A DNA stretch of 44,099 nucleotides. Origin: Escherichia phage TR1. Shown here piece by piece: positions 4,642 to 27,775 of this stretch (positions are counted from its first letter, which is position 1; every line of letters starts with the position of its first letter). The notes beneath the pieces were generated by a model. That model saw only the letters and a program-made list of their open reading frames with translations, was not told where the DNA came from and ran no database searches. The stretch lies in the sequence record OP087522.1, one strand, 5' to 3'. Position numbers and translations under genes: made by a program.

Positions 4642-4806
4642 ATGTTTGACAACTTTTACGACGCGATGGAAGAGGCAGTTTTCAGGGCCTCGCTTGATGG
4701 AAAGATTTACGGTTTAGTTCAGAAAGTTGATAAGATTGTTGTGCGTATCGTGCGCAAATCAGTACCAAACAAATTCATGTGGACTACAAAAGAGAGGGCT
4801 GAATAA
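4642..4806 (+). CDS. hypothetical small protein (about 54 aa)
   Basis: Manual translation (MFDNFYDAMEEAVFRASLDGKIYGLVQKVDKIVVRIVRKSVPNKFMWTTKERAE). Confidence 0.3.
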   Translation: MFDNFYDAMEEAVFRASLDGKIYGLVQKVDKIVVRIVRKSVPNKFMWTTKERAE

Positions 4807-11674: not shown

Positions 11675-11895
11675 TATTTAAAATCCTCTGGGCAATCTTT
11701 CTTCATCTCTGCAATGTCTGCAACCATTCGGTCGCGCCACGTTTCGATATCAGTTCGCAAGTAATCTTCCTCAAAACTATAATCCAGGCAACGAGCCAAA
11801 TCCCAAACATCACCTTTATATCCAGCCTTGTGCAACTCCTGCGATGCCATTGCCTGAAATAACTCCCACTGCTTGTCAAAGGTTAAAATCGCCAT
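11674..11895 (-). CDS. hypothetical acidic protein (73 aa)
   Basis: ORF track; ATGA overlap with upstream gene. Confidence 0.45.
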   Translation of the reverse strand: MAILTFDKQWELFQAMASQELHKAGYKGDVWDLARCLDYSFEEDYLRTDIETWRDRMVADIAEMKKDCPEDFK

Positions 11896-12095
11896 TACTC
11901 AGATACCTCATCAAATTTCTCGCCAAACGCGTTTTTAACAGTTTCTAAATCGTCTTTGTAAGTTGGGCTGACTTCAAATGCGTAGTTGACATCTTCAACA
12001 TCAATAAGAATATAACCATCATCTGTGATAGCAAGTGAGTATTGGTAACCGGTCTTGCGTGATTCGTAGAATTTTCCAGTATAGATAGTAGCCAT
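11895..12095 (-). CDS. hypothetical acidic protein (66 aa)
   Basis: ORF track; promoter cassette and leader CATCGAAACGAAA upstream. Confidence 0.5.
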   Translation of the reverse strand: MATIYTGKFYESRKTGYQYSLAITDDGYILIDVEDVNYAFEVSPTYKDDLETVKNAFGEKFDEVSE

Positions 12096-12133
12096 TTTCT
12101 TTCTCTCTTCGTGTGTTTCGTTTCGATGAAGTG

Positions 12134-12176
12134 ATAATACACCACTTCATCAATTCGTCTTTAGCAATTCGTGCTA
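12134..12176 (-). promoter_or_regulatory. promoter cassette copy: palindrome TAGCA-ATTCG-TGCTA (12162-12176), 22-bp spacer, -10 TATTAT (12134-12139) inside an inverted repeat
   Basis: Measured; palindrome overlaps stop of VRR-NUC gene. Confidence 0.55.
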
Positions 12177-16628: not shown

Positions 16629-16693
16629 TGCCTTAAAGATGCTACAATCCAAATTAGCAATTAGTGCTATTTTACAAATGGAGACTTTACACA

Positions 16694-19171
16694 ATGGCAA
16701 TTTATGACTTAGGAACAGCGTCTCTGGCCGCTAATGGCGAGGTGACTGGCGTAGGGACAACATGGAAGGCGCCCCTTACACTGATTAGAGTTGGTGCAAC
16801 CATCGTATTTAAAACTGAACCAGTACAAATTTACACCATCTCTGAAATTATCAGTGATACTCAGATTAATGTTTATAACCCCAATTCTGAGACCGTTCCT
16901 GCCGGAACTGGTTACGCGATTCTTGCTCACGATGGAATTACCGTTCAGGGTTTAGCTCAGGATGTTGCTGAAACTCTCCGTTACTATCAATCAAGGGAAT
17001 CAGAGGTCGCAACAGCAGTTGATGTTTTTAAGGCTTTTGATCAGGATAAATTTTCAAGTGATGTAAGCCGAGTTAACACACAATTTGGAGAAATTACTGC
17101 TATTGGTGCTCAGGTCTCATCTGATGCCGCCAAAGTGACCACCGATAAGAATGCAGCGGCAGCAAGTGCAACCAGCGCATCCGCTGACAAAGATGCGGCA
17201 GCTGCATCAGCGCGGGAGGCGGCAGATTATGCGGCGTCACTTGACACACAGAACATATTAAGAAAAGACTTGGCGCTATCAGACTTAACTGACAAGCCAC
17301 TAGCAAGGCAGAACCTTGATGTTTACTCCAGGGATGAGACTGACTCAAAAATAATTAATGATTTGTCCGAGAGAGGAGGTGAACTCATTAATTTGAAAAG
17401 GGGCGGTCTTACATCAAACTTATCGACTACGATTGCTGATTTTTACCAGAATACAGTTATTAACCTTGTTACAGATTACGGTCTTGTTGGTGACTTTGAT
17501 CCCACCACTGGCGTATCTAACGGAACAAATAACGTCACTGCACTTCAGGAAGCAATCAATGATGTTATTTCCAACGGAGGTAATGTGACATTAAGATTCC
17601 CGTCAGGGAAGTTTAGATTTAAGCGTCTAAACACATACAAGCCAGGTGGCGTAGCTGTTACTTTAGGTGTTGAGGGTGCAGGTTTAAAGAATGTAATTAT
17701 TGAGGGGGATGGATTCTCAACCGAACTCTATTGCGATGATATTGGAAGATTGTTCGGGCTTTATGCTGCGAACAACGTTATCATCCGAAATATGAAGGTG
17801 ATAGGTTACGGGGGCGGTGCTACTTCGCCATCTAGAGAAAGAGACCAGGCATTCGCGTTGGGTTATAAATGCAAGAGCGTCATTTTCGATAATGTTTACA
17901 TTGATAACTTCTACGGTGACTGCATCTATTTTGGTGGAGATCTTGAGAATGGCGCAATAACAGGAAAATTCTCTAGAGATGTAACAGTAAGGAATTGCAT
18001 ACTTAAGGAGCGTTACGGCAACGGCATTCGATCCTGGGACGCATCAGGTGGCGGCACACGATCCCGTTTGGCAATGGCTGTTATCGACGTCGTAGGCCTG
18101 AAAGTACATGACAATATTATTTACGGAGAAATAGATCTAGAACCAAACTCGTCAGGCCAGAATATGCAGTATGTGGAAATCCATGACAATACATTCCGCA
18201 GTGCTGGAGTTATCCCAGTAACCAACCCTTACGAGTGTGAGCCATTGTACGAAGGAACAGCCACGATAAGAGGCGGTGTAACACTGCAAACTGTTGCGTC
18301 AAACTTGACGACCGCATCAATCACAATTCGCGATAACGCAATTGAGTACGGGCGAATTCGAATTACTGGTGGTTCAAATGCAGGTCATGTGTTGTGTCAT
18401 GGCAATAGGATACGTCGTGGTGGGTTTTTTATTGGGCATTATTCTGGAACAAACAACAACCCTAACATGATCATTAGGGATAATCATGTTGATGCTGGGT
18501 TCAATGGTAGTGACGATTACAACATGGAAGACTGGATTACTGTCGGAAGCATCCCTTTAGCTGCATTCTTTATACAAGGCAGCCTTTCATCATGTCGCGT
18601 TATTGGTAATACATGTGGAAGCCAAGATGCTAGTTTTTCTAATATGTTTTATCTTCTTAACACCACGCAAACAGGTGGGGTAGATATTGAGGCGGGCGGC
18701 GGTAGTAACCAGTGGGTGGAAAACATTGCAGTTAACACCACTGCTCTTCGTAACTACACAACGCGAACTACAGACCTTGATATTGGGAACTCCGTAATGC
18801 CAAACTCTGGGGTTGGTCGAACTGAGTTTACTAAGCAGTTAGCGAGAGTATTAATTAATCCTGTCGTTAATGTGACCGTTTCGGGAAGTAACCAGAAGAT
18901 ACAATTTAATACAAATCCCGGTAATAAATATAGATTAACTCATAGTGCAAGCTCTAGTGTAGATGGAATAACTGGCTACACTGAGGAAGCCGGGATGCAA
19001 ATACAAATAAGGAGTTCATCAGCTTCTGCATCAAACACTTTGACATTAAAATCTAGTTCAAGTTTTTATATGAAAGGAGGAGTAGACGCGACCTTGAAAT
19101 CAACTAGACACATTATTATGGTTGAGTTAATAGAGCCAGAGGGGTGGACTGAGGTATATAGAAACTTTTAA
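16694..19171 (+). CDS. tail fibre / tailspike-like protein with right-handed beta-helix (pectate-lyase-like) central domain
   Basis: Ala-rich segment AAAASATSASADKDAAAASAREAADYAAS; repeated motifs NVIIRN, DNIIYG, HDNTF, IRDNAI, IRDNHV typical of parallel beta-helix; GGAGA RBS; start taken at ATG 16694, not the upstream GTG of the ORF track. Confidence 0.55.
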   Translation: MAIYDLGTASLAANGEVTGVGTTWKAPLTLIRVGATIVFKTEPVQIYTISEIISDTQINVYNPNSETVPAGTGYAILAHDGITVQGLAQDVAETLRYYQSRESEVATAVDVFKAFDQDKFSSDVSRVNTQFGEITAIGAQVSSDAAKVTTDKNAAAASATSASADKDAAAASAREAADYAASLDTQNILRKDLALSDLTDKPLARQNLDVYSRDETDSKIINDLSERGGELINLKRGGLTSNLSTTIADFYQNTVINLVTDYGLVGDFDPTTGVSNGTNNVTALQEAINDVISNGGNVTLRFPSGKFRFKRLNTYKPGGVAVTLGVEGAGLKNVIIEGDGFSTELYCDDIGRLFGLYAANNVIIRNMKVIGYGGGATSPSRERDQAFALGYKCKSVIFDNVYIDNFYGDCIYFGGDLENGAITGKFSRDVTVRNCILKERYGNGIRSWDASGGGTRSRLAMAVIDVVGLKVHDNIIYGEIDLEPNSSGQNMQYVEIHDNTFRSAGVIPVTNPYECEPLYEGTATIRGGVTLQTVASNLTTASITIRDNAIEYGRIRITGGSNAGHVLCHGNRIRRGGFFIGHYSGTNNNPNMIIRDNHVDAGFNGSDDYNMEDWITVGSIPLAAFFIQGSLSSCRVIGNTCGSQDASFSNMFYLLNTTQTGGVDIEAGGGSNQWVENIAVNTTALRNYTTRTTDLDIGNSVMPNSGVGRTEFTKQLARVLINPVVNVTVSGSNQKIQFNTNPGNKYRLTHSASSSVDGITGYTEEAGMQIQIRSSSASASNTLTLKSSSSFYMKGGVDATLKSTRHIIMVELIEPEGWTEVYRNF

Positions 19172-19175
19172 CAAT

Positions 19176-19204
19176 AAAAAAACCCCGCCTATGCGGGGTT
19201 TTTA
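19176..19204. terminator. bidirectional rho-independent terminator between convergent tail-fibre and SSB genes
   Basis: Hairpin CCCCGC-CTAT-GCGGGG flanked by A-run and T-run. Confidence 0.65.
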
Positions 19205-19207
19205 CTA

Positions 19208-19636
19208 TCAAAATGGAATATCATCTTCAAAAGTCTGATTCTGCTGTGGTTGTTTTTGCTGCTGCTGCTGTTGCGGCTGCTGTTGCTGTTGATGTTGTTG
19301 TTGTGGTGCTGAATCACCACGCTGACTAAACTCAAGTCGCGGGTTATTCATGTTGATTGTTACGTAAGTCTTTCCATCCTTATCACGAACATCAACAGCC
19401 AACGTTTCGCAACTTACGCTAACAATCTTTCCTTCCTGAAATGCCTCGTCATACCATGCAAGCATTGATTCTTTTGCAAAGAATACAGCCCTGTAATTGT
19501 TCCAGCAAGTTTCATTATCTTTGTTCTTATATCTTTCTGACAAGTCTATAGCATACATTTTCCATAAACCATTTGAATTGCTGCCTTCTTTTGTGAATGG
19601 CTGGCGGCGAATTGTACCGGTAATTACGTGACTCAT
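19208..19636 (-). CDS. single-stranded DNA-binding protein with Gln-rich linker and acidic DDIPF tip
   Basis: C-terminal ...FEDDIPF as in bacterial SSB tails; poly-Q encoded by CAG/CAA run at about 19240-19310. Confidence 0.6.
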   Translation of the reverse strand: MSHVITGTIRRQPFTKEGSNSNGLWKMYAIDLSERYKNKDNETCWNNYRAVFFAKESMLAWYDEAFQEGKIVSVSCETLAVDVRDKDGKTYVTINMNNPRLEFSQRGDSAPQQQHQQQQQPQQQQQQKQPQQNQTFEDDIPF

Positions 19637-20007
19637 TTCATTTCCTCTCTGTTTATAAATTCGGATTTAAACTTTGATTTTATATCCAACAACTCATTGT
19701 ACGCATCTATAGGTAGCAGGTGATACTTTGTTGAGTAAAACTTTCTATTGTACATCCATCTACCGAAGTACTTTCCTGTTTTCTTGTGTAAGCAAACACC
19801 TTTATATCCAAGTGAATTATTTTTATTGGCACCCCTGTTTTGTTGGTTTTCTACCCTATTGCATTTCCTTAAATTTGCAACGTTGTTGTTTGATGGATTA
19901 CCATCAATATGATCAATCTCAAAGCTACCTAGCAAATCCTCTCCAGAGTTAACGCAATATGCAATGCGATGCACTTTTAGTCTTTTATTGTCTTGGTATA
20001 TTGACAT
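19633..20007 (-). CDS. HNH endonuclease (shorter divergent copy)
   Basis: HRIAY...EIDHIDGNPSNNNVANLR HNH core plus GYKGV AP2-like start. Confidence 0.6.
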   Translation of the reverse strand: MSIYQDNKRLKVHRIAYCVNSGEDLLGSFEIDHIDGNPSNNNVANLRKCNRVENQQNRGANKNNSLGYKGVCLHKKTGKYFGRWMYNRKFYSTKYHLLPIDAYNELLDIKSKFKSEFINREEMK

Positions 20008-20866: not shown

Positions 20867-20909
20867 ACTATACCTGAGCTATCCATTGTTGTTTTAGCAA
20901 TTTGTGCTA
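20867..20909 (-). promoter_or_regulatory. promoter cassette copy: palindrome TAGCA-ATTTG-TGCTA (20895-20909), 22-bp spacer, -10 TATAGT (20867-20872)
   Basis: Measured. Confidence 0.55.
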
Positions 20910-21385
20910 TTTCCGTGATTTCTATGAAATCCCAACTTAACCTCTTCGCTTTTTCTTGCTCTAGCGGCTTCCTCGATTGAGTCAAAACACCCAATGTGAT
21001 ACTCGTAACCATCCACACCCATTCTTGCTACATATTTTGATAGCCTTGGCACCCAACTAACACCCAGAACTCCGGTTTTGTTTGTTTTTCTCAATGACTG
21101 ATTCATGGCATTTCCTTGCCTATTCACCAATCGCAAGTTCTCAATCCTGTTATCATTTCTAATGTGATTTATGTGATCAACAAATAAACCACTAGGTATT
21201 TTACCATTTACGATATCCCATATAATTCTGTGAACCTTGTGCTCCCTGCCATCGTACCTCAACCTTACATAACCGTTAGTCTTACTTACATTTCCAGCAA
21301 CTTTACCAATGCAACCTCTAGTTCCGCTCATTATCTTCCATATCAAATTAACCCCATCGTAATCAAAAATTTCAGACCAGTTCAT
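20894..21385 (-). CDS. HNH-AP2 homing endonuclease (paralog family copy 2)
   Basis: MNWSEIFDY..., HRIIWD...DHINHIRNDNRIENLR, AP2-like GVSW...GCFDSIEEAARAR. Confidence 0.75.
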   Translation of the reverse strand: MNWSEIFDYDGVNLIWKIMSGTRGCIGKVAGNVSKTNGYVRLRYDGREHKVHRIIWDIVNGKIPSGLFVDHINHIRNDNRIENLRLVNRQGNAMNQSLRKTNKTGVLGVSWVPRLSKYVARMGVDGYEYHIGCFDSIEEAARARKSEEVKLGFHRNHGNSTNC

Positions 21386-22343
21386 CTCTGTATTTCCTCA
21401 TATCCCACTCAGGTACATCTAAATCAATCTCTGTTGCACCCATCGCATATCCGGGCCACACATCATTCTCTTTGCACTTCTTGTAAGTTGCAAGGGCCTC
21501 TAGATACATTCTACGACCAACCTTCAGTTGCTCTTCTGTAATATTGTAAAGCATTGGTAAGTAAGGTGCCTCTTTCTCGATTGCAAGTAACCTTACTTTT
21601 GTTCTTCTTTTCTCGTTAAAAGCCCTGACGAAAACATCGTGCTGAAGGGCCATTTTTGCGAGATACCCGTGCTTGAATGCAAGCCTCCCAAACTCCTGAG
21701 GTGATGCGCTGGCTGTCGTCTTCAGGTCTGTAATGCATACAACTCCATCAATTACATCTACGTGGTCTATTCGAATCTTCACTCCTACACCGAGAATCTC
21801 ACCAAATATTGATAACTCTTTCTGCGCCGTTTCGCTATTCACGATTTTATTATATGCCGGAATATTGCAAAGAACCTCACGCATGGCGACCACTTCGTCA
21901 TAGTCTGCTGCGCTAACCAGCTCCTTACCCTCCACAAGCGCTTGGGCGCTCTCCTGCTGCTCAATTAACCATTTAACACTCCAATCCTCACCAGAGCGAT
22001 ACATCATCTCTACAAGCTCGCTATACCCCTTCCCTGACGTGCCAGCTACACCAACTTTTTTAAGTGCTGCCGATAATGCTGTCTGACTTGTAATTAAACC
22101 ATCAATCGCATCAAGGTCGGTTGCTCGCAAGTACTCTTTATCGAACACATCTTGTTCTAGAATCATACAGTGAGATAAAGTGCCAAACTTAAGCGCCTTA
22201 CTATCATTGTTTCGCTGCTTGAACTTCCACTTAGCTGGAGAACCCTGGATAATCTCGACAAGTGAACTGCCAGAGATGTGATCAGTCTCAGAGTGGTAAG
22301 ACTCGCTGCTTAACTCCTCTCGCGTAAAAACTTTAAAGCCCAT
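21372..22343 (-). CDS. PD-(D/E)xK exonuclease (recombination exonuclease)
   Basis: Motif IDHVDVIDGVVCITDLKT (D...D-x-K); adjacent to Erf and SSB. Confidence 0.55.
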   Translation of the reverse strand: MGFKVFTREELSSESYHSETDHISGSSLVEIIQGSPAKWKFKQRNNDSKALKFGTLSHCMILEQDVFDKEYLRATDLDAIDGLITSQTALSAALKKVGVAGTSGKGYSELVEMMYRSGEDWSVKWLIEQQESAQALVEGKELVSAADYDEVVAMREVLCNIPAYNKIVNSETAQKELSIFGEILGVGVKIRIDHVDVIDGVVCITDLKTTASASPQEFGRLAFKHGYLAKMALQHDVFVRAFNEKRRTKVRLLAIEKEAPYLPMLYNITEEQLKVGRRMYLEALATYKKCKENDVWPGYAMGATEIDLDVPEWDMRKYRDELV

Positions 22344-22346
22344 ATT

Positions 22347-22694
22347 TTATTCCTTAACCTTAACTACCTTAACAGATTTCAAATCTTCTTCAGTGAAGCA
22401 CCCGGTCAGAACATCTCGGGCTTCTTCTTTGGTCTCGAATCTGTCAGCCTCGTTTTTATCCGTTGTGTATCCAGCAGGGCCACCAAAGTAGCAATCGCCG
22501 AACAGTGCGTTGTTTTTCTCTTTGATAATGTAGTAGGTCATTTCTCTATCTCTCTGGTTGTTTGCTTTCGATGGGTTAACTATATATTCGGCACGGTAGC
22601 TAGTCCAATTGGTTTTGCCAATCGTTGACTCAGACTTACGCGTGAATCCTTGTAATTTCGTGTAGGCATTGCCAATGGTTACGCTTTCTGGCAT
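22347..22694 (-). CDS. hypothetical protein (115 aa), first gene leftward from second control region
   Basis: ORF track. Confidence 0.5.
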   Translation of the reverse strand: MPESVTIGNAYTKLQGFTRKSESTIGKTNWTSYRAEYIVNPSKANNQRDREMTYYIIKEKNNALFGDCYFGGPAGYTTDKNEADRFETKEEARDVLTGCFTEEDLKSVKVVKVKE

Positions 22695-22842
22695 CTCGGC
22701 CCAGCTATAGCTTAATGTAACTAGTGTGTATATCGTGTATACCGTTTCTCGCTAAGGGTGCATCGGTATAGCTGCCGCGCAATACTGTATAAATCCACAT
22801 GATATTAAAATTATAACCGGAACACTCTATAGAAGTAGTTAC

Positions 22843-22905
22843 ATGATATACACAGTAATATATAATAATAATAATAAGAGTAAAAGCTTGATATATATAG
22901 ATATT
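22843..22905. repeat. second copy of (AAT)n-containing repeat element (5 units) with GTATAC/GTAAC motifs nearby
   Basis: TATACACAGTA-ATATATAATAATAATAATAA aligned by eye to 3398-3446. Confidence 0.6.
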
Positions 22906-23002
22906 TTAATGTAACTAATGCGTAACTAGGCGTAACAGCGCGTATACCATTTTCCGCGGACGAGATTGTATACACCGAGTTACATCGGTTACGCGTATAC
23001 AA

Positions 23003-23046
23003 TAGCACGAATAGCTAAAGACTCCGTAATCATCCTTTGCTATAGT
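23003..23046 (+). promoter_or_regulatory. promoter cassette copy (plus): palindrome TAGCA-CGAAT-AGCTA (23003-23017), 23-bp spacer, -10 TATAGT (23041-23046), leader CATCGAAACGAAA
   Basis: Measured. Confidence 0.55.
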
Positions 23047-23086
23047 TACTCCATCGAAACGAAACACACTCACTAAGGAATACAAA

Positions 23087-23317
23087 ATGACTAACTTCAT
23101 CAAATCAGCAATAATCGCGGCAGCAGTAATCATGACTGTAGGTTGTTCTTCCGGACCCCGACCTGACGGTTGGTGCGCGACTGAAGTTAACGGCTCATGT
23201 GTTGCTAAATGGAAAGGAGGTGTAGTTGTAGCTTCAGGTGAAACAGATATCCGCTGGGATGGTATCAAAAACTTCTCTGGATCAGTTAAAGATCATGGCA
23301 CAAAGGAGTGGAAATAA
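23087..23317 (+). CDS. small lipoprotein (76 aa), candidate Cor/Llp-like superinfection-exclusion protein
   Basis: Signal peptide with lipobox (IMTVGCSS); beside the J-like tail tip gene on the opposite strand with its own promoter. Confidence 0.5.
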
Positions 23318-24279
23318 TGCCTCAGGGTATCTTGATAGACTTGAATGACGGAAGACCGAGAATGGAGATAACTGCAGGTTTAAGAGCGCCATCAGTAACA
23401 GGAAGCCTTAGCAGTAACTCCACGTTTAATTCCGCCAATGGCACTAGAGACTTCGGACTAACAATGACTCAAGGATCTGAGGCCTTCATATTGCCGACAA
23501 AGGCTATTGACGTTTATGACTTCAACTTCATACCTGAGGTTTATTTCATGAATGGATTTTCCAGGGTCAATAACTCAACTGGAAGGATAAGTATAGGTAA
23601 CTTTAACGGCTCATCAGGACGTTTGATTGGATTTGGTGCGCAAGGTTTTGAGGTTCTTGGTGCATCACCAGGCAGTGAGGGGTTATTTGTCAGTGATTCG
23701 ACTAACTTCACTGCAATAACATCAAACAGTAGACTCCTGACTGCTCAGTATGTCGGAACTGTGACTGTGAATGGAAGCTATACACTCCCGGTGACTGGAA
23801 TACCGTTTGGAAGGTGGAATAACCCAAATGTCACCCTTGAGTTTGACGGGGAAAGAATACTATGTAGAAACAATACCTACACAGGAATTGATAATGTATC
23901 AGCATCAGTAACTATCGATCTTGTTATATTCAACAATACAGCACCAACCGCAGGGCCTGGTTTAACAATTTCAAACGCCTCTGGCCAGATAGTGTTTTCC
24001 AGCGTCAAGCGACCTTTTGTACTAAGTGGATTCCTCCAGCTTTCCAACTCATACCAATCAATAGGTAATGGGTTTTTCCCAATACTAAGGTGCGGCGCGA
24101 TGGTTGAGGTTACTGGTGGATACAACAACCTTAGATACAAGGGCGTTGCAATGTCAAATGGTCAGGTTAGGGCGCATAAAGGAAGTGTTTATGGTAACTA
24201 CTCAACGAAGTCTGGCGCGCGGTTCCCATTCAACACCAACATCTCAATGCGGTTACCGTACATACCAAACATGTACTAA
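23317..24279 (+). CDS. Asn/Ser/Thr/Gly-rich protein (about 320 aa), function unknown (possible receptor-binding or exclusion partner)
   Basis: AAGGAG RBS; TAATG coupling with lipoprotein gene; start taken at ATG 23317. Confidence 0.5.
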   Translation: MPQGILIDLNDGRPRMEITAGLRAPSVTGSLSSNSTFNSANGTRDFGLTMTQGSEAFILPTKAIDVYDFNFIPEVYFMNGFSRVNNSTGRISIGNFNGSSGRLIGFGAQGFEVLGASPGSEGLFVSDSTNFTAITSNSRLLTAQYVGTVTVNGSYTLPVTGIPFGRWNNPNVTLEFDGERILCRNNTYTGIDNVSASVTIDLVIFNNTAPTAGPGLTISNASGQIVFSSVKRPFVLSGFLQLSNSYQSIGNGFFPILRCGAMVEVTGGYNNLRYKGVAMSNGQVRAHKGSVYGNYSTKSGARFPFNTNISMRLPYIPNMY

Positions 24280-24308
24280 AAAAGCCCCCAGAAGGGGGCT
24301 ATATTTTA
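24277..24308. terminator. bidirectional rho-independent terminator
   Basis: Hairpin GCCCCC-AGAA-GGGGGC with A-run and T-rich flank. Confidence 0.6.
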
Positions 24309-27300
24309 ACTCCATACTCCAACTACAACCATTCCTCCACCTGGTAGGTTAACAGTGATTCCGTTACCGTTAATCTGAACAGTGTTGCTTGTTCCGTTAA
24401 ACGCGAAGTTACCATTGTTAGCGTAAAGGCTTCCTCTAACGGTGGCATTACTTAGTTCAGCAAAACCAGATTTATCAATAGCCCACCCCTGACTTCCTTG
24501 AACGTAGTCATTTGATTGAATTCTTTTACCAATCTTGGCATTAGTGATTGATCCATCCTTGATCACGGCGCTCTGGATGAACACCTGGTTGCTCTCAACA
24601 ACAAAAGGCAATGACCACTGACCGGAACCAGATCCAATCCCGTTACTGATAGCGAATCTGTTTGCGTCAAAGATGAACTGACTCTTAACGCCAGTACCAC
24701 TGCCAACAAGCTCCATGCTCATCCCTGCGCTATACTCAACCCCATTATATTTTAGACCTAACTTAACACCGTACTGAGCGCCAGCGGATTCCGCATCAAC
24801 CCATGAGTCAAGTTTTTCATTAAGTGCAGCCTGAGTATCTCCAAGCTGAGCGCTCAAAGCAGTATCGGCAGTGGTCCTTGCTTCTGTTTCGGTGGCTAGT
24901 GCCGTCTGAACCTCAGTTATGGAAGCTACAACCTCACCATCAATCTGCGCTTTAAGCTGCGTGAGAGCCTCTACGCGCGCCTGAGTTTCATCAGCAATAA
25001 GATTCACCGCCTGAACGTATTCAGCCTTTCTGGCACCATTCTCCTTTGTCATGCGGCGAACATCAGTGTCATTTGCTAATGCGTTCTCGATGATTGCCTC
25101 AGCCTGATTCTGAATGTCCTGATTCTTTTGAATCGCATTCTGTTCGAGATATTTGAATCCTTCCGAACCTTCAATGTCAACTTTGATATATTCGTTGATA
25201 ATGTTGGCATCGTCAGTGCTCATACCTCTAGCGAAATCAGACCAGTCAGAGGTGTTGCCGATTCTGTCAATTAATCTTGCACGATACCAGATAACCTTGC
25301 CTGGCTGAATTGGCGTGTGCCAGTATTCATAGGCTGGATAAGGAAGCAGCGTCAGCAAGCTCGCGTTATCATGGTTGTAAGTACCGTCACCGTTATCAGC
25401 AACTTGCTGAAGTTCAGTGTAAGCTGTGTCGCCTGAGCCTTCAGGGAATCCCCATTTAACACGAATGCCAAACACCTCATCAGTTGAAGCAGTAATAACG
25501 GTTGGCGCAGATGGGCTACCAATCTTGCCAGTTAGCGATACAGTTACAATATCAGACCAGGCAGAGACGTTTTCAGTATCTGATACGCTGCGAACCCTAA
25601 CGTCATAGATTCCTGCGTAAATACCTTCAATATCAACTTCTGTGCTAGCTGTTCTGGGTACGTTAATCCAGTTACCATTCTCTTTCCTCCACTGAACATT
25701 GTATGTTTTAGCGTATGGCGCTTTGTCCCACCCTATTACCATCGTCTCAACCGATAAACCCTGAACAACCTTGCTGTAGCTTGATACTGTTAAGTTCTCA
25801 GGTGGCGACAATCTGTCAGGTTCTACAATTGAAGTAGGGCGGTCTATAATGTTAACGCCGTAGTCAATCTCGTCATATTTGTTCGGGTCGTACTCAACAG
25901 CAGTAATTGTGTACTGGAACGAGTCCTGACCATCAGTATCTGCTTTTTGAATACCAGTCACAACATATTGCTGAAGTGCCAGATTGTCCTTGTCGATTGC
26001 GAAAACAGTATCTGGCTGAGCTACAAAACTGAACGCCGTGTTCAGGTTAATAGTTCTACCATCTTCAGATACGCTTGCGATAGTTCTAGCCTCTGGGCTA
26101 CCGTCCGGTTTGTTAAGCAGGATTCTGTCACCAGGTGCTGCATCAACTTTAAACGGAGTAAAAACCTGCAATCCTTGCACAGATTCGATTCGACCAGAAA
26201 GGTTTAACTGATAGTTGCTCGACCATGCTGCGTCATTAACCGCAATAACCTCGCCAATCATCGGAATCATACCTTCTAACCCAGTTGTGAAGCTGATAGT
26301 TTCGCTTCTCAGGTTGGTTTTTAGAAGCCATCTTCCGCGCCTGTTTGCTTCACTTCTGCGAGTGCAGCCAATAGCAGTTAAATCAACAGGGTTAAATCCA
26401 AAGCGGCGGGTTGCCTCTAATTCAAATACCGGCTGTACATCTTGCTGATAGTTATTCTCCACATCATCAAACTGTACGTTCGCAGTAGTGTAAAGACTCT
26501 TTTCGCTAGCGAATGTGCGGCTGAATAATCCATTTACAACGTTATCGTTCGTGAAGATGTAAGATGGATTGCGAGGCTTATCAACTACGATGCCAATCTT
26601 TTCGCCATCATAGAATGTCAGGCCGCGGAATATTGAGCAGATATCACGAATTAGTGTGTATGCCTCAACCTTATTCTGTACAACCATATCGCAAAGATAA
26701 CGAGGTTCCATTCCACCTTTACCATCTGGAACCATCTGGTCGCAGAATTGTGCAGCTTCATACAAGCCCCACTTATCAATCTCTACACCTAACTCTCGCT
26801 GGTCAAGTCCATATCTGCGGTTTGTCACTAAGTCATAAAGAACCCATGCTGGGTTATTTGACCACGCCATTTTAAATAAACCATTCCATGTGCCGCTGTA
26901 AGTTCTGCTTTCAGGGTTATAGTTTGTTGGGACCTGAATTAACTTCCATCGCTTCTTGATAGAGATTGTTGGGATTCCGTTAGGGAACAGGTCAGAGCCG
27001 AACTCAACGTAAACCAGAGCAGTAAGCGGATAGCGGAATTTAGCGTCAATTACTTCCTGATAGGTTGTAATCTGCATTCCATTAACCAGCGTGCTACTTG
27101 TTGAGTCTGCTGTAATCTTACGGATGCGAACCAGCGCACTATCAAATTCAGCGGGAAGGTTTACACGTATGCTACGGTCGTAACCAGTTGTTGTTTTCCC
27201 GTTTGCAACTCCGCGAGTATATTGCTGATATGCCCCACCATTAACTGACAAGTCAATTGCATACTCGCAAGTTGTGCCATTCAGGTCTCCGTTACTTTCT

Positions 27301-27695
27301 TGTTTGATCAGTCGAGGCCAAAAGAGTTTAACTCGAATCGCCGAAAGCTGGCTGTTATTAACCGCAATGATGTACGGGGTATCGTTCGTAATTTCCCTGG
27401 AAGCCTGAATCTCTGAGTTCGCACCGTCAAGCCCAGCGATATAGTCCTGATATTGCGTACCAGCGCGAAACTCGGCGCGAACACCTTCATAGTTGTAGGT
27501 GCCATTCTGATTTTGCACTGGAACATCAGCAAGGTATAAATCCTTCAATGAGAAGTTAGGGTCCACCTCTCCGTCAGCAACCGCAAGTAATACCTTAACC
27601 TTGTTAAGTGAAATTAGGTTATCTTCCTGCTCCACTGGTTGATGCTGCTTCTGGCTACCGCCTTTGGCACCATAAATCTTAATTTCTTCAGCCAT
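24306..27695 (-). CDS. tail tip / host-specificity protein (lambda J-like); ORF track start 27734, likelier start 27695
   Basis: Over 1100 aa, last gene of lambda-like I-K-L-M block; N-terminus KIYGAKGGSQKQHQ resembles the start of lambda J. Confidence 0.7.
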   Translation of the reverse strand: MAEEIKIYGAKGGSQKQHQPVEQEDNLISLNKVKVLLAVADGEVDPNFSLKDLYLADVPVQNQNGTYNYEGVRAEFRAGTQYQDYIAGLDGANSEIQASREITNDTPYIIAVNNSQLSAIRVKLFWPRLIKQESNGDLNGTTCEYAIDLSVNGGAYQQYTRGVANGKTTTGYDRSIRVNLPAEFDSALVRIRKITADSTSSTLVNGMQITTYQEVIDAKFRYPLTALVYVEFGSDLFPNGIPTISIKKRWKLIQVPTNYNPESRTYSGTWNGLFKMAWSNNPAWVLYDLVTNRRYGLDQRELGVEIDKWGLYEAAQFCDQMVPDGKGGMEPRYLCDMVVQNKVEAYTLIRDICSIFRGLTFYDGEKIGIVVDKPRNPSYIFTNDNVVNGLFSRTFASEKSLYTTANVQFDDVENNYQQDVQPVFELEATRRFGFNPVDLTAIGCTRRSEANRRGRWLLKTNLRSETISFTTGLEGMIPMIGEVIAVNDAAWSSNYQLNLSGRIESVQGLQVFTPFKVDAAPGDRILLNKPDGSPEARTIASVSEDGRTINLNTAFSFVAQPDTVFAIDKDNLALQQYVVTGIQKADTDGQDSFQYTITAVEYDPNKYDEIDYGVNIIDRPTSIVEPDRLSPPENLTVSSYSKVVQGLSVETMVIGWDKAPYAKTYNVQWRKENGNWINVPRTASTEVDIEGIYAGIYDVRVRSVSDTENVSAWSDIVTVSLTGKIGSPSAPTVITASTDEVFGIRVKWGFPEGSGDTAYTELQQVADNGDGTYNHDNASLLTLLPYPAYEYWHTPIQPGKVIWYRARLIDRIGNTSDWSDFARGMSTDDANIINEYIKVDIEGSEGFKYLEQNAIQKNQDIQNQAEAIIENALANDTDVRRMTKENGARKAEYVQAVNLIADETQARVEALTQLKAQIDGEVVASITEVQTALATETEARTTADTALSAQLGDTQAALNEKLDSWVDAESAGAQYGVKLGLKYNGVEYSAGMSMELVGSGTGVKSQFIFDANRFAISNGIGSGSGQWSLPFVVESNQVFIQSAVIKDGSITNAKIGKRIQSNDYVQGSQGWAIDKSGFAELSNATVRGSLYANNGNFAFNGTSNTVQINGNGITVNLPGGGMVVVGVWS

Positions 27696-27775
27696 ATCAC
27701 AAAGCCTCATGTTTGTTTTGATCATTTGTGCCATTCTACACTAAATAAAAAACCCGCACTAGGCGGGTATGATAT

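Follow-up and report, generated by a model that had tools for sequence, protein, structure and literature searches.

Two phage proteins have been solved in complex with LptD and LptE (LptDE), one on each side of the outer membrane. The lipoprotein Rtp45 of coliphage Rtp was seen bound to the lipopolysaccharide translocon LptDE(M), where it lies between LptE and LptM at the periplasmic interface of the outer membrane (PDB 9RPS; Dunbar 2025, PMC12685063). It contains a Cys30-Cys38 disulfide and has an interface of ~1000 square angstroms; its hairpin rises in the LptD lumen and extracellular loop 4 of LptD is shifted by up to 20 angstroms, to a position that leaves the receptor-binding protein unable to bind. 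Rtp45 by itself is enough to form the LptDE complex. On the outer side, the receptor-binding protein of Oekolampad (Bas18, Bas18_0025) was seen inserted in the extracellular face of open LptDE (PDB 9RPT, 9RPW and 9RQI; PMC12685063). We analyzed the 44,099-nucleotide (nt) sequence of Escherichia phage TR1 (OP087522.1; “the window”), a T1-like coliphage of the Drexlerviridae. Next to its gene for the J-like tail-tip protein are two open reading frames (ORFs), one for a lipoprotein of 76 amino acids (aa) and one for a 320-aa protein. Judged by homology, this pair is very probably a receptor-specificity cassette, composed of an LptD receptor-binding protein and its cognate exclusion lipoprotein. 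Our analysis directly established the structures of the genes, their full-length homologies and synteny, that the receptor-binding protein lacks export signals, and that the J tip co-varies with it.

LptD dependence is established for Bas01, Bas02, Bas14, Bas18, Bas25 and OzMSK (PMC8594841, PMC12685063, PMC13035648). Spontaneous mutants resistant to Oekolampad, FritzHoffmann, TheodorHerzl, VogelGryff and AugustePiccard of the BASEL collection map to lptD (Maffei 2021, PMC8594841), and OzMSK was unable to infect two lptD loop mutants (Black 2025, PMC13035648); its OzMSK_038 is deposited as “receptor binding protein”. Black 2025 (PMC13035648) also listed and modeled an ORF of Escherichia phage vB_EcoS_IME542 (IME542) as a predicted LptD-binding protein, argued that the conserved end of these proteins sits on the J tip and the variable body on the receptor, and found loop sequences in three groupings that possibly bind differently. 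A 2026 preprint defined an LptD-associated family at the J locus by >30% identity and >99% coverage; it likewise reported an association with a matched J tip, and it found that Bas01 needs NupG besides LptD, via a J domain. Maffei 2021, Dunbar 2025, Black 2025 and the 2026 preprint treat a locus of this kind as the module for LptD specificity plus its exclusion factor. What such a locus means, and how both families are structured, was already published in 2021-2025, and the IME542 ORF has been named in print. The same logic is known from T5, where the tail-tip binder pb5 and the adjacent lipoprotein Llp, the latter on the periplasmic side, act on the same receptor, FhuA, Llp preventing attachment from outside (PDB 8A8C, 8A60; PMC9586334).

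In the window the lipoprotein ORF (23087-23317, + strand) is followed by the 320-aa ORF (23317-24279, +), a hairpin and the convergent J-like gene (24306-27734, -), with a stop-to-stop gap of 26 nt between the latter two genes. Over positions 22700-24400 the window is 99.2% identical to IME542 and 85-96% identical to CJ19, TH21, 50EP and phiEB49. The order lipoprotein, receptor-binding protein, terminator and convergent J is kept in Rtp (rtp45/rtp44/rtp43), OzMSK, EC3a, Oekolampad and TheodorHerzl. In FritzHoffmann and VogelGryff, too, the receptor-binding gene adjoins J on its downstream side, the same variable locus as in the window. Based on their Pfam matches and on the number of phage records with homologues (354 for the lipoprotein and 373 for the 320-aa protein), we consider both ORFs to be real genes.

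The original prediction had called a 76-aa lipoprotein, and our results agree. The product matches the PROSITE-type lipobox pattern, with Lys6, a hydrophobic stretch and then Cys20 followed by Ser-Ser. The signal peptide is predicted to span aa 1-19 (23087-23143), with the lipidation site at Cys20 (23144-23146). By this pattern-based assessment a type II signal peptide with its lipobox cysteine is present, the residue at +2 is Ser, and no inner-membrane retention signal was seen. The protein matched Pfam PF24052 (Phage_lipoprotein) at 1.3e-35, with 121.7 bits compared to a cut-off of 27, and matched Rtp45 in the PDB (9RPS chain D) across residues 1-75 with an E-value of 2.1e-35. Like Rtp45 (UniProt Q333D9) it is 76 aa long; the two are 73% identical by BLASTP, they share Cys20, and Cys30 (23174-23176) and Cys38 (23198-23200) coincide exactly with the disulfide cysteines of Rtp45. 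The Rtp45 gene also lies upstream of, and overlaps, a receptor-binding gene, and it is preceded by the same intergenic region. Elsewhere, the lipoprotein is 100% identical to phiEB49 gp32 and, taking Rtp45 and the OzMSK lipoprotein together, 72-78% identical to these two. Such strong homology points to a superinfection-exclusion factor of the Rtp45 type. The proposal of a superinfection-exclusion operon therefore holds for the lipoprotein, which is predicted to block the phage's own receptor, but not as a label for the operon as a whole, which appears to encode one virion protein and one exclusion protein.

The original prediction described the 320-aa protein as rich in Asn, Ser, Thr and Gly and as having no obvious counterpart. 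The composition was confirmed: these four residues make up 40% of the protein compared to 20-34% in four other window proteins. The start is also supported. A program-made ORF list offers a longer version of 323 aa beginning with a GTG at 23308, nine bases upstream, but all homologues begin with MPQG or MAQG, and the ATG at 23317 and the length of 320 aa are thus the real ones. The lack of a counterpart did not survive the searches. The protein matched Pfam PF20051 (DUF6453) at 2.8e-141 and proved to be a full-length homologue of the Oekolampad receptor-binding protein (chain C of PDB 9RPT, 9RPW and 9RQI; E = 4.9e-69, residues 2-320 against 2-321). Its identity is 42% to the Oekolampad protein, 44% to Rtp44, 45% to the proteins of FritzHoffmann, TheodorHerzl and VogelGryff, 65-66% to OzMSK_038 and EC3a_38, 91% to phiEB49 gp33 and 97.8% to the IME542 ORF. 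This homology exceeds the identity and coverage by which the 2026 preprint delimits its family. The Oekolampad protein, Rtp44, the Bas01 protein and OzMSK_038 share with the window protein their homology over the full length, their size, their location downstream of J and a matched J tip. On the other hand, the window protein belongs to a separate allele group, formed with IME542, CJ19, TH21, 50EP and phiEB49 (91-98% identity), and its loop sequences differ from those of the four proteins just named.

Members of the family are 311-321 aa long and have in common an N-terminal block and a C-terminal IPNMY. The most conserved block of the window protein comprises aa 1-26 (23317-23394, +): among seven homologues a mean of 0.80 of residues 1-20 is identical, compared to 0.29-0.66 elsewhere. 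Just within this block, at about 23390, the DNA similarity to more than 100 phages comes to an end, which marks a recombination boundary; a role of the block in attachment is probable. We found neither a signal peptide nor a membrane segment in the 320-aa protein (maximum KD19, the hydrophobicity over 19 residues, 1.04). It therefore cannot reach the envelope of the producing cell alone, and the label “membrane protein / moron” given to it in PHROGs and RefSeq is unfounded. A single-sequence AlphaFold2 model was unusable (mean predicted local distance difference test score, pLDDT, 31.4). However, the 42% identity along the full length of the solved chain suggests a fold of two lectin-like beta-sandwiches. 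Taken together, sequence comparison identifies the 320-aa protein as the LptD-type receptor-binding protein of the phage and not as an orphan partner in exclusion. The original prediction drew on lipoproteins of FhuA-dependent phages; the homologies point to LptD, or LptDE, and not to FhuA. NCBIfam and PADLOC searches returned nothing for either protein.

The convergent gene (24306-27734, -) encodes a J-like central tail fiber or tail-tip protein of 1142 aa, which matched phrog_31 (“central tail fiber J”) and the Pfam families FNIII-A_GpJ, Phage-tail_3 and Phage_Tail_Tip and is 93-94% identical to Rtp43 and OzMSK_037. Its C-terminal tip (24309-24824, -) consists of the Phage_Tail_Tip match (aa 971-1109, nt 24408-24824) and the last 33 residues. 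Across the seven LptD-type phages that were examined, identity to the window in the last 70 aa of J amounts to 50-84%. Compared to Dhillonvirus and Queuovirinae phages, identity is 50-67% in these 70 aa while it is only 23-37% over the whole of J; compared to the FhuA-type phage T1, it is 27% in the last 70 aa while it is 57% over the whole of J. The type of J tip therefore tracks the type of receptor-binding protein and not the phylogeny of J. For the C-terminal third of J the closest sequence is that of IME542 (98.8%), other LptD-type phages follow at ~84-88%, and Bas01 is outside the best 45 records. In the Queuovirinae FritzHoffmann and VogelGryff the receptor-binding gene stands alone beside J, without a lipoprotein gene. 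The original prediction was correct in that the pair runs convergent to the J-like gene. However, it called the J-like gene receptor-binding, and because the 320-aa partner is homologous to a protein solved on LptDE, J is more probably the scaffold. The conserved N-terminal end of the receptor-binding protein would then dock on the J tip and its variable body would contact the receptor.

DUF6453 genes are arranged differently in two other groups of phages. In the Webervirus Enterobacter phage F20 (L011:1526-5957) the DUF6453 gene is on the J strand, two bases past J, and closes the K-I-J tail operon. It is neither convergent with J nor coupled to a lipoprotein gene, and in a Klebsiella phage the lipoprotein homologue is ~10 kb away. 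Compared to Webervirus, the E. coli phages evidently have an inverted and re-linked cassette. In Klebsiella phage 066039 (L010) a J tip domain (149 aa, Phage_Tail_Tip, 55% identity to the end of the window's J) seemed to stand alone and to be coupled to the receptor-binding gene, a gene fission that would have spoken for docking. We rejected this as artefactual: the record is truncated within J, the frame is open to the start of the locus, and the intact F20 has J followed by the receptor-binding gene on one strand. In the Gordonclarkvirinae, podoviruses that include Kuravirus and relatives, a DUF6453 homologue (Pfam 4.5e-25) follows two tail-fiber genes and precedes the genes for a transglycosylase and ejection proteins. 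These phages also encode an Rtp45-like lipoprotein (41-51% identity) at a distant locus. The loci concerned, in record coordinates, are AnnaHegner_Bas87 L009:3938-4969, ES17 18975-19913 and 65258-65464, and LorandFenyves_Bas91 63083-63229. LptD could be the unrecognized terminal receptor of the Gordonclarkvirinae; in the literature searched, no paper links them to LptD.

The coupling and the terminator of the original prediction were recovered, as was a promoter-like site. At the junction of the two genes (23304-23319, +) the stop codon TAA of the lipoprotein gene (23315-23317) overlaps the start codon ATG of the 320-aa ORF (23317-23319), giving a TAATG at 23315-23319, and a Shine-Dalgarno (SD) sequence AGGAG lies at 23304-23308 within the end of the lipoprotein gene. 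The junction GGAGTGGAAnTAATG is kept in Rtp, OzMSK, EC3a and TheodorHerzl, and in Oekolampad it reads TAA-TA-ATG. This conservation suggests that the lipoprotein and the receptor-binding protein are made together. Downstream, the hairpin AGCCCCC-AGAA-GGGGGCT at 24283-24300 has a seven-pair stem with six GC pairs and a T-rich tail on each strand. It scores as an intrinsic terminator on both strands and is shared by the operon of the receptor-binding protein (+) and by the tail operon (-), whose last gene is J. A comparable GC hairpin is found at the matching place in seven related phages.

Upstream, we identified a candidate sigma-70-like promoter, GTTACA-17-TATAAT, at 22838-22866 (+). It is 220 nt upstream of the lipoprotein gene, inside the divergent intergenic region 22695-23086, and it is unique in the window and identical in Rtp. 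The site is a consensus match only (10 of 12 positions), in a region where promoter-like sites are not enriched (6 compared to 4.7 +/- 2.1 in shuffled sequences). Divergent promoters are predicted at the corresponding place in the CEB_EC3a record. The end of the leader and the ribosome-binding region in front of the lipoprotein ATG (23046-23086, +; TTACTCCATCGAAACGAAAC...AAGGAATACAAA) are kept in Rtp. An Rfam search of 22300-24500 gave no credible match in the 220-nt leader, the best E-value being 0.13, far under the gathering scores.

The leader and the intergenic region have further features. The motif TTACTCCATCGAAACGAAAC (23046-23065), which precedes the ribosome-binding site, recurs at 12115-12134 (-), 20 nt before a small ORF (11895-12095, -). 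In OzMSK two genes have it in front of them, the lipoprotein gene and that of an inserted DNA methylase (L002:3945-4000 and 4720-4755), and the spot of the motif is where EC3a has an inserted Rha-type DNA-binding gene. The motif may initiate translation as a portable cassette, or it may be a site at which genes are inserted by recombination. The 392-nt intergenic region (22695-23086) is nearly identical in Rtp and contains local repeats, direct and inverted, namely two copies of TTAATGTAACTA, three copies of CGCGTATAC and GCGTAAC/GTTACGC pairs, and an 18-nt inverted repeat overlaps the promoter candidate. From their sequence, these repeats look like operator sites for a regulator.

We propose the following mechanism, in which LptD binding, the way exclusion works, the docking on J and the time of expression are all read across from homologues. 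The operon would be read rightward from the divergent intergenic promoter region and end at the terminator that it shares with the tail operon. The lipoprotein would be exported, lipidated at Cys20 and, with Ser at +2, sorted to the outer membrane. There it would bind LptDE from the periplasmic side and, by analogy with Rtp45, its hairpin would reach up the LptD lumen and displace loop 4. The displaced loop would block receptor-binding proteins of the DUF6453 family from LptD, so that the infected cell is guarded against superinfection and progeny are not wasted on the LptD of cell debris. The 320-aa protein would be soluble, beta-rich and cytoplasmic and would be assembled on the J tip of progeny tails. 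At the next host its variable loops would enter the extracellular LptD/LptE face and trigger irreversible adsorption.

Several observations weigh against this interpretation. Compared to Rtp45, about a quarter of the residues of the lipoprotein are different. These include residues 33-35 (QAS in Rtp45, EVN in the window), which belong to the strand that pairs with LptD 318-323, and Pro49 of the hairpin, which is replaced by Ala. In the 320-aa protein conservation is lowest in the putative receptor-contact loops, and Gln299 of the Oekolampad protein, which bonds with LptD Ser350, aligns with Lys298. Among relatives with experimentally verified LptD dependence, the nearest is OzMSK, at only 65% identity of the receptor-binding protein. 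The incorporation of DUF6453 proteins into virions and their docking on J are, moreover, putative. In T5, llp and the pb5 gene are separate transcription units, whereas the window pair is translationally coupled, and co-transcription of an exclusion gene with a virion gene thus differs from the T5 arrangement. Finally, gel-band proteomics of virions of related phages (Niu 2014) found seven abundant proteins and the DUF6453 protein was absent from them, although this is uninformative for a low-copy tip protein.

One possibility is that the pair does consist of a receptor-binding protein and an exclusion factor, but that the allele group of IME542, CJ19, phiEB49 and the window has shifted to a different or additional terminal receptor while keeping the fold. 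The distance to OzMSK and the divergence of the loops could be read in this way, as could the need of Bas01 for both NupG and LptD and the three loop groupings seen by Black et al. (PMC13035648). We nevertheless regard such a shift as quite unlikely. All tested members of the family use LptD, across 32-95% pairwise identity and three subgroups, and the 2026 preprint sets the limit of the LptD family as low as 30% identity. The lipoprotein that is coupled to the window protein still has 72-78% identity with Rtp45, which binds LptDE, and with its OzMSK counterpart, and the C-terminal third of J is closest to those of other LptD-type phages. In a somewhat wider form, the IME542/phiEB49-type allele might engage LptD in another mode or state, or engage another or additional receptor, and still be coupled to an Rtp45-type lipoprotein; this we consider unlikely as well.

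Another possibility is a two-component exclusion system of the Cor/Llp type, in which both proteins act in the infected cell on a FhuA-like TonB-dependent receptor and the 320-aa protein is a new accessory factor. The original prediction had named Cor and Llp as examples of such lipoproteins, a homologue carries the name “Cor superinfection exclusion protein” in one public record, and the designation of the partner as “membrane protein / moron” in PHROGs and RefSeq would fit. However, BLASTP aligned T1 Cor with the lipoprotein only at residues 9-25, that is, 17 residues of signal peptide and lipobox, and the mature parts are dissimilar. No Llp chain was among the PDB sequence matches at E <= 1 although the FhuA-Llp entry 8A60 was in the searched library, and neither Pfam, where PF24052 was the sole match, nor PHROGs gave a match to the Cor family of T1, phi80 and N15. 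By sequence the lipoprotein is not a relative of Cor or Llp. Moreover, Rtp45 alone forms the complex with LptDE. The co-orientation and translational coupling of the genes would suit joint action in exclusion, but the partner has no signal peptide or membrane segment and, from end to end, is homologous to a protein whose solved structure places it on the outer side of LptDE. Its gene also occurs without the lipoprotein gene in Queuovirinae and within tail operons in Webervirus and Gordonclarkvirinae.

A shared genomic location with cor is a further argument for the two-component system, and the comparison with T1 is instructive. The FhuA cassette of T1 (ST32, ST31 and the Cor lipoprotein ST30) occupies the same slot, between J and the exonuclease VIII/recombination genes. 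It includes a 75-aa lipoprotein that is convergent to J, and its presumed purpose is the same. In contrast, its protein families are unrelated to those of the window, its candidate receptor-binding genes are on the J strand, apart from cor, and its J tip is only 27% identical (last 70 aa). The gene beside the window lipoprotein is of the DUF6453/LptD type and not of the ST31/ST32 type found next to T1 cor. T5 Llp likewise has no sequence relationship to the lipoprotein and serves a different receptor; it works by long-range allostery in a TonB-dependent transporter while Rtp45 displaces a loop through the barrel lumen. We therefore hold a two-component system to be very improbable. It is scarcely credible that the lipoprotein takes part in lysis as an outer-membrane or unimolecular spanin, or that it is a generic moron lipoprotein whose place beside the receptor-binding gene is incidental: although it is small and has a lipobox like outer-membrane spanins, and a distant homologue in phage Chapo is annotated “u-spanin” in one record, it is 73% identical to a structurally specific LptDE binder (~1000 square angstroms), its mature part is only 57 aa and contains the Rtp45 disulfide cysteines, and its gene is not part of a lysis cassette and is linked to an LptD-type receptor-binding gene in both Drexlerviridae and Dhillonvirus.

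Beyond the cassette, we noted other features of the window. Two HNH_3 homing-endonuclease ORFs, at 19633-20007 (-) and 20894-21385 (-) (Pfam 3e-9 and 3e-18), are inserted among the SSB-like, Erf and exonuclease (DUF3799/PDDEXK) genes of the recombination module, and Rtp and OzMSK are without HNH_3 genes at the corresponding positions. The protein at the SSB position (19208-19636, -; 142 aa) has a long Gln-rich C-terminal tail (QQQHQQQQQPQQQQQQKQPQQ) and then an acidic DDIPF end, and it had no Pfam match at E <= 0.001. An 835-aa lateral tail-fiber or tailspike protein (16664-19171, +) is similar to tail-fiber PHROGs in its N-terminal ~190 residues only, and a Pfam search gave no match. This is consistent with the pattern of conserved anchor and variable body described for the lateral fibers of Drexlerviridae.

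When compared to the same phages, the lipoprotein is much better conserved (72-78%) than the receptor-binding protein (44-65%). Such a difference would be expected for a periplasmic LptDE face that does not vary, with diversification driven by the outer loops and by competing phages, and on that view cross-exclusion is predicted among LptD-dependent phages. It is conceivable, though we consider it unlikely, that the strictly conserved SD-TAATG coupling reflects a functional requirement for the blocker to accompany each production of the binder, for example against trapping of nascent protein or virions on LptD at lysis. If true, the coupling of blocker and binder is a regulatory design that is undescribed for T5.

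These results make no conceptual addition to the literature of 2021-2026, and their main value is in annotation. Public records call the binder “membrane protein / moron” and the lipoprotein “hypothetical”, “Cor” or “u-spanin”, whereas the correct labels would be LptD-type receptor-binding protein and Rtp45-type exclusion lipoprotein. With these labels the sequence allows a prediction of the terminal receptor, namely LptD, which is essential and conserved in the outer membrane. Such a prediction would be useful for the design of phage cocktails, for anticipating cross-exclusion among LptD-dependent phages and for engineering resistant production strains.

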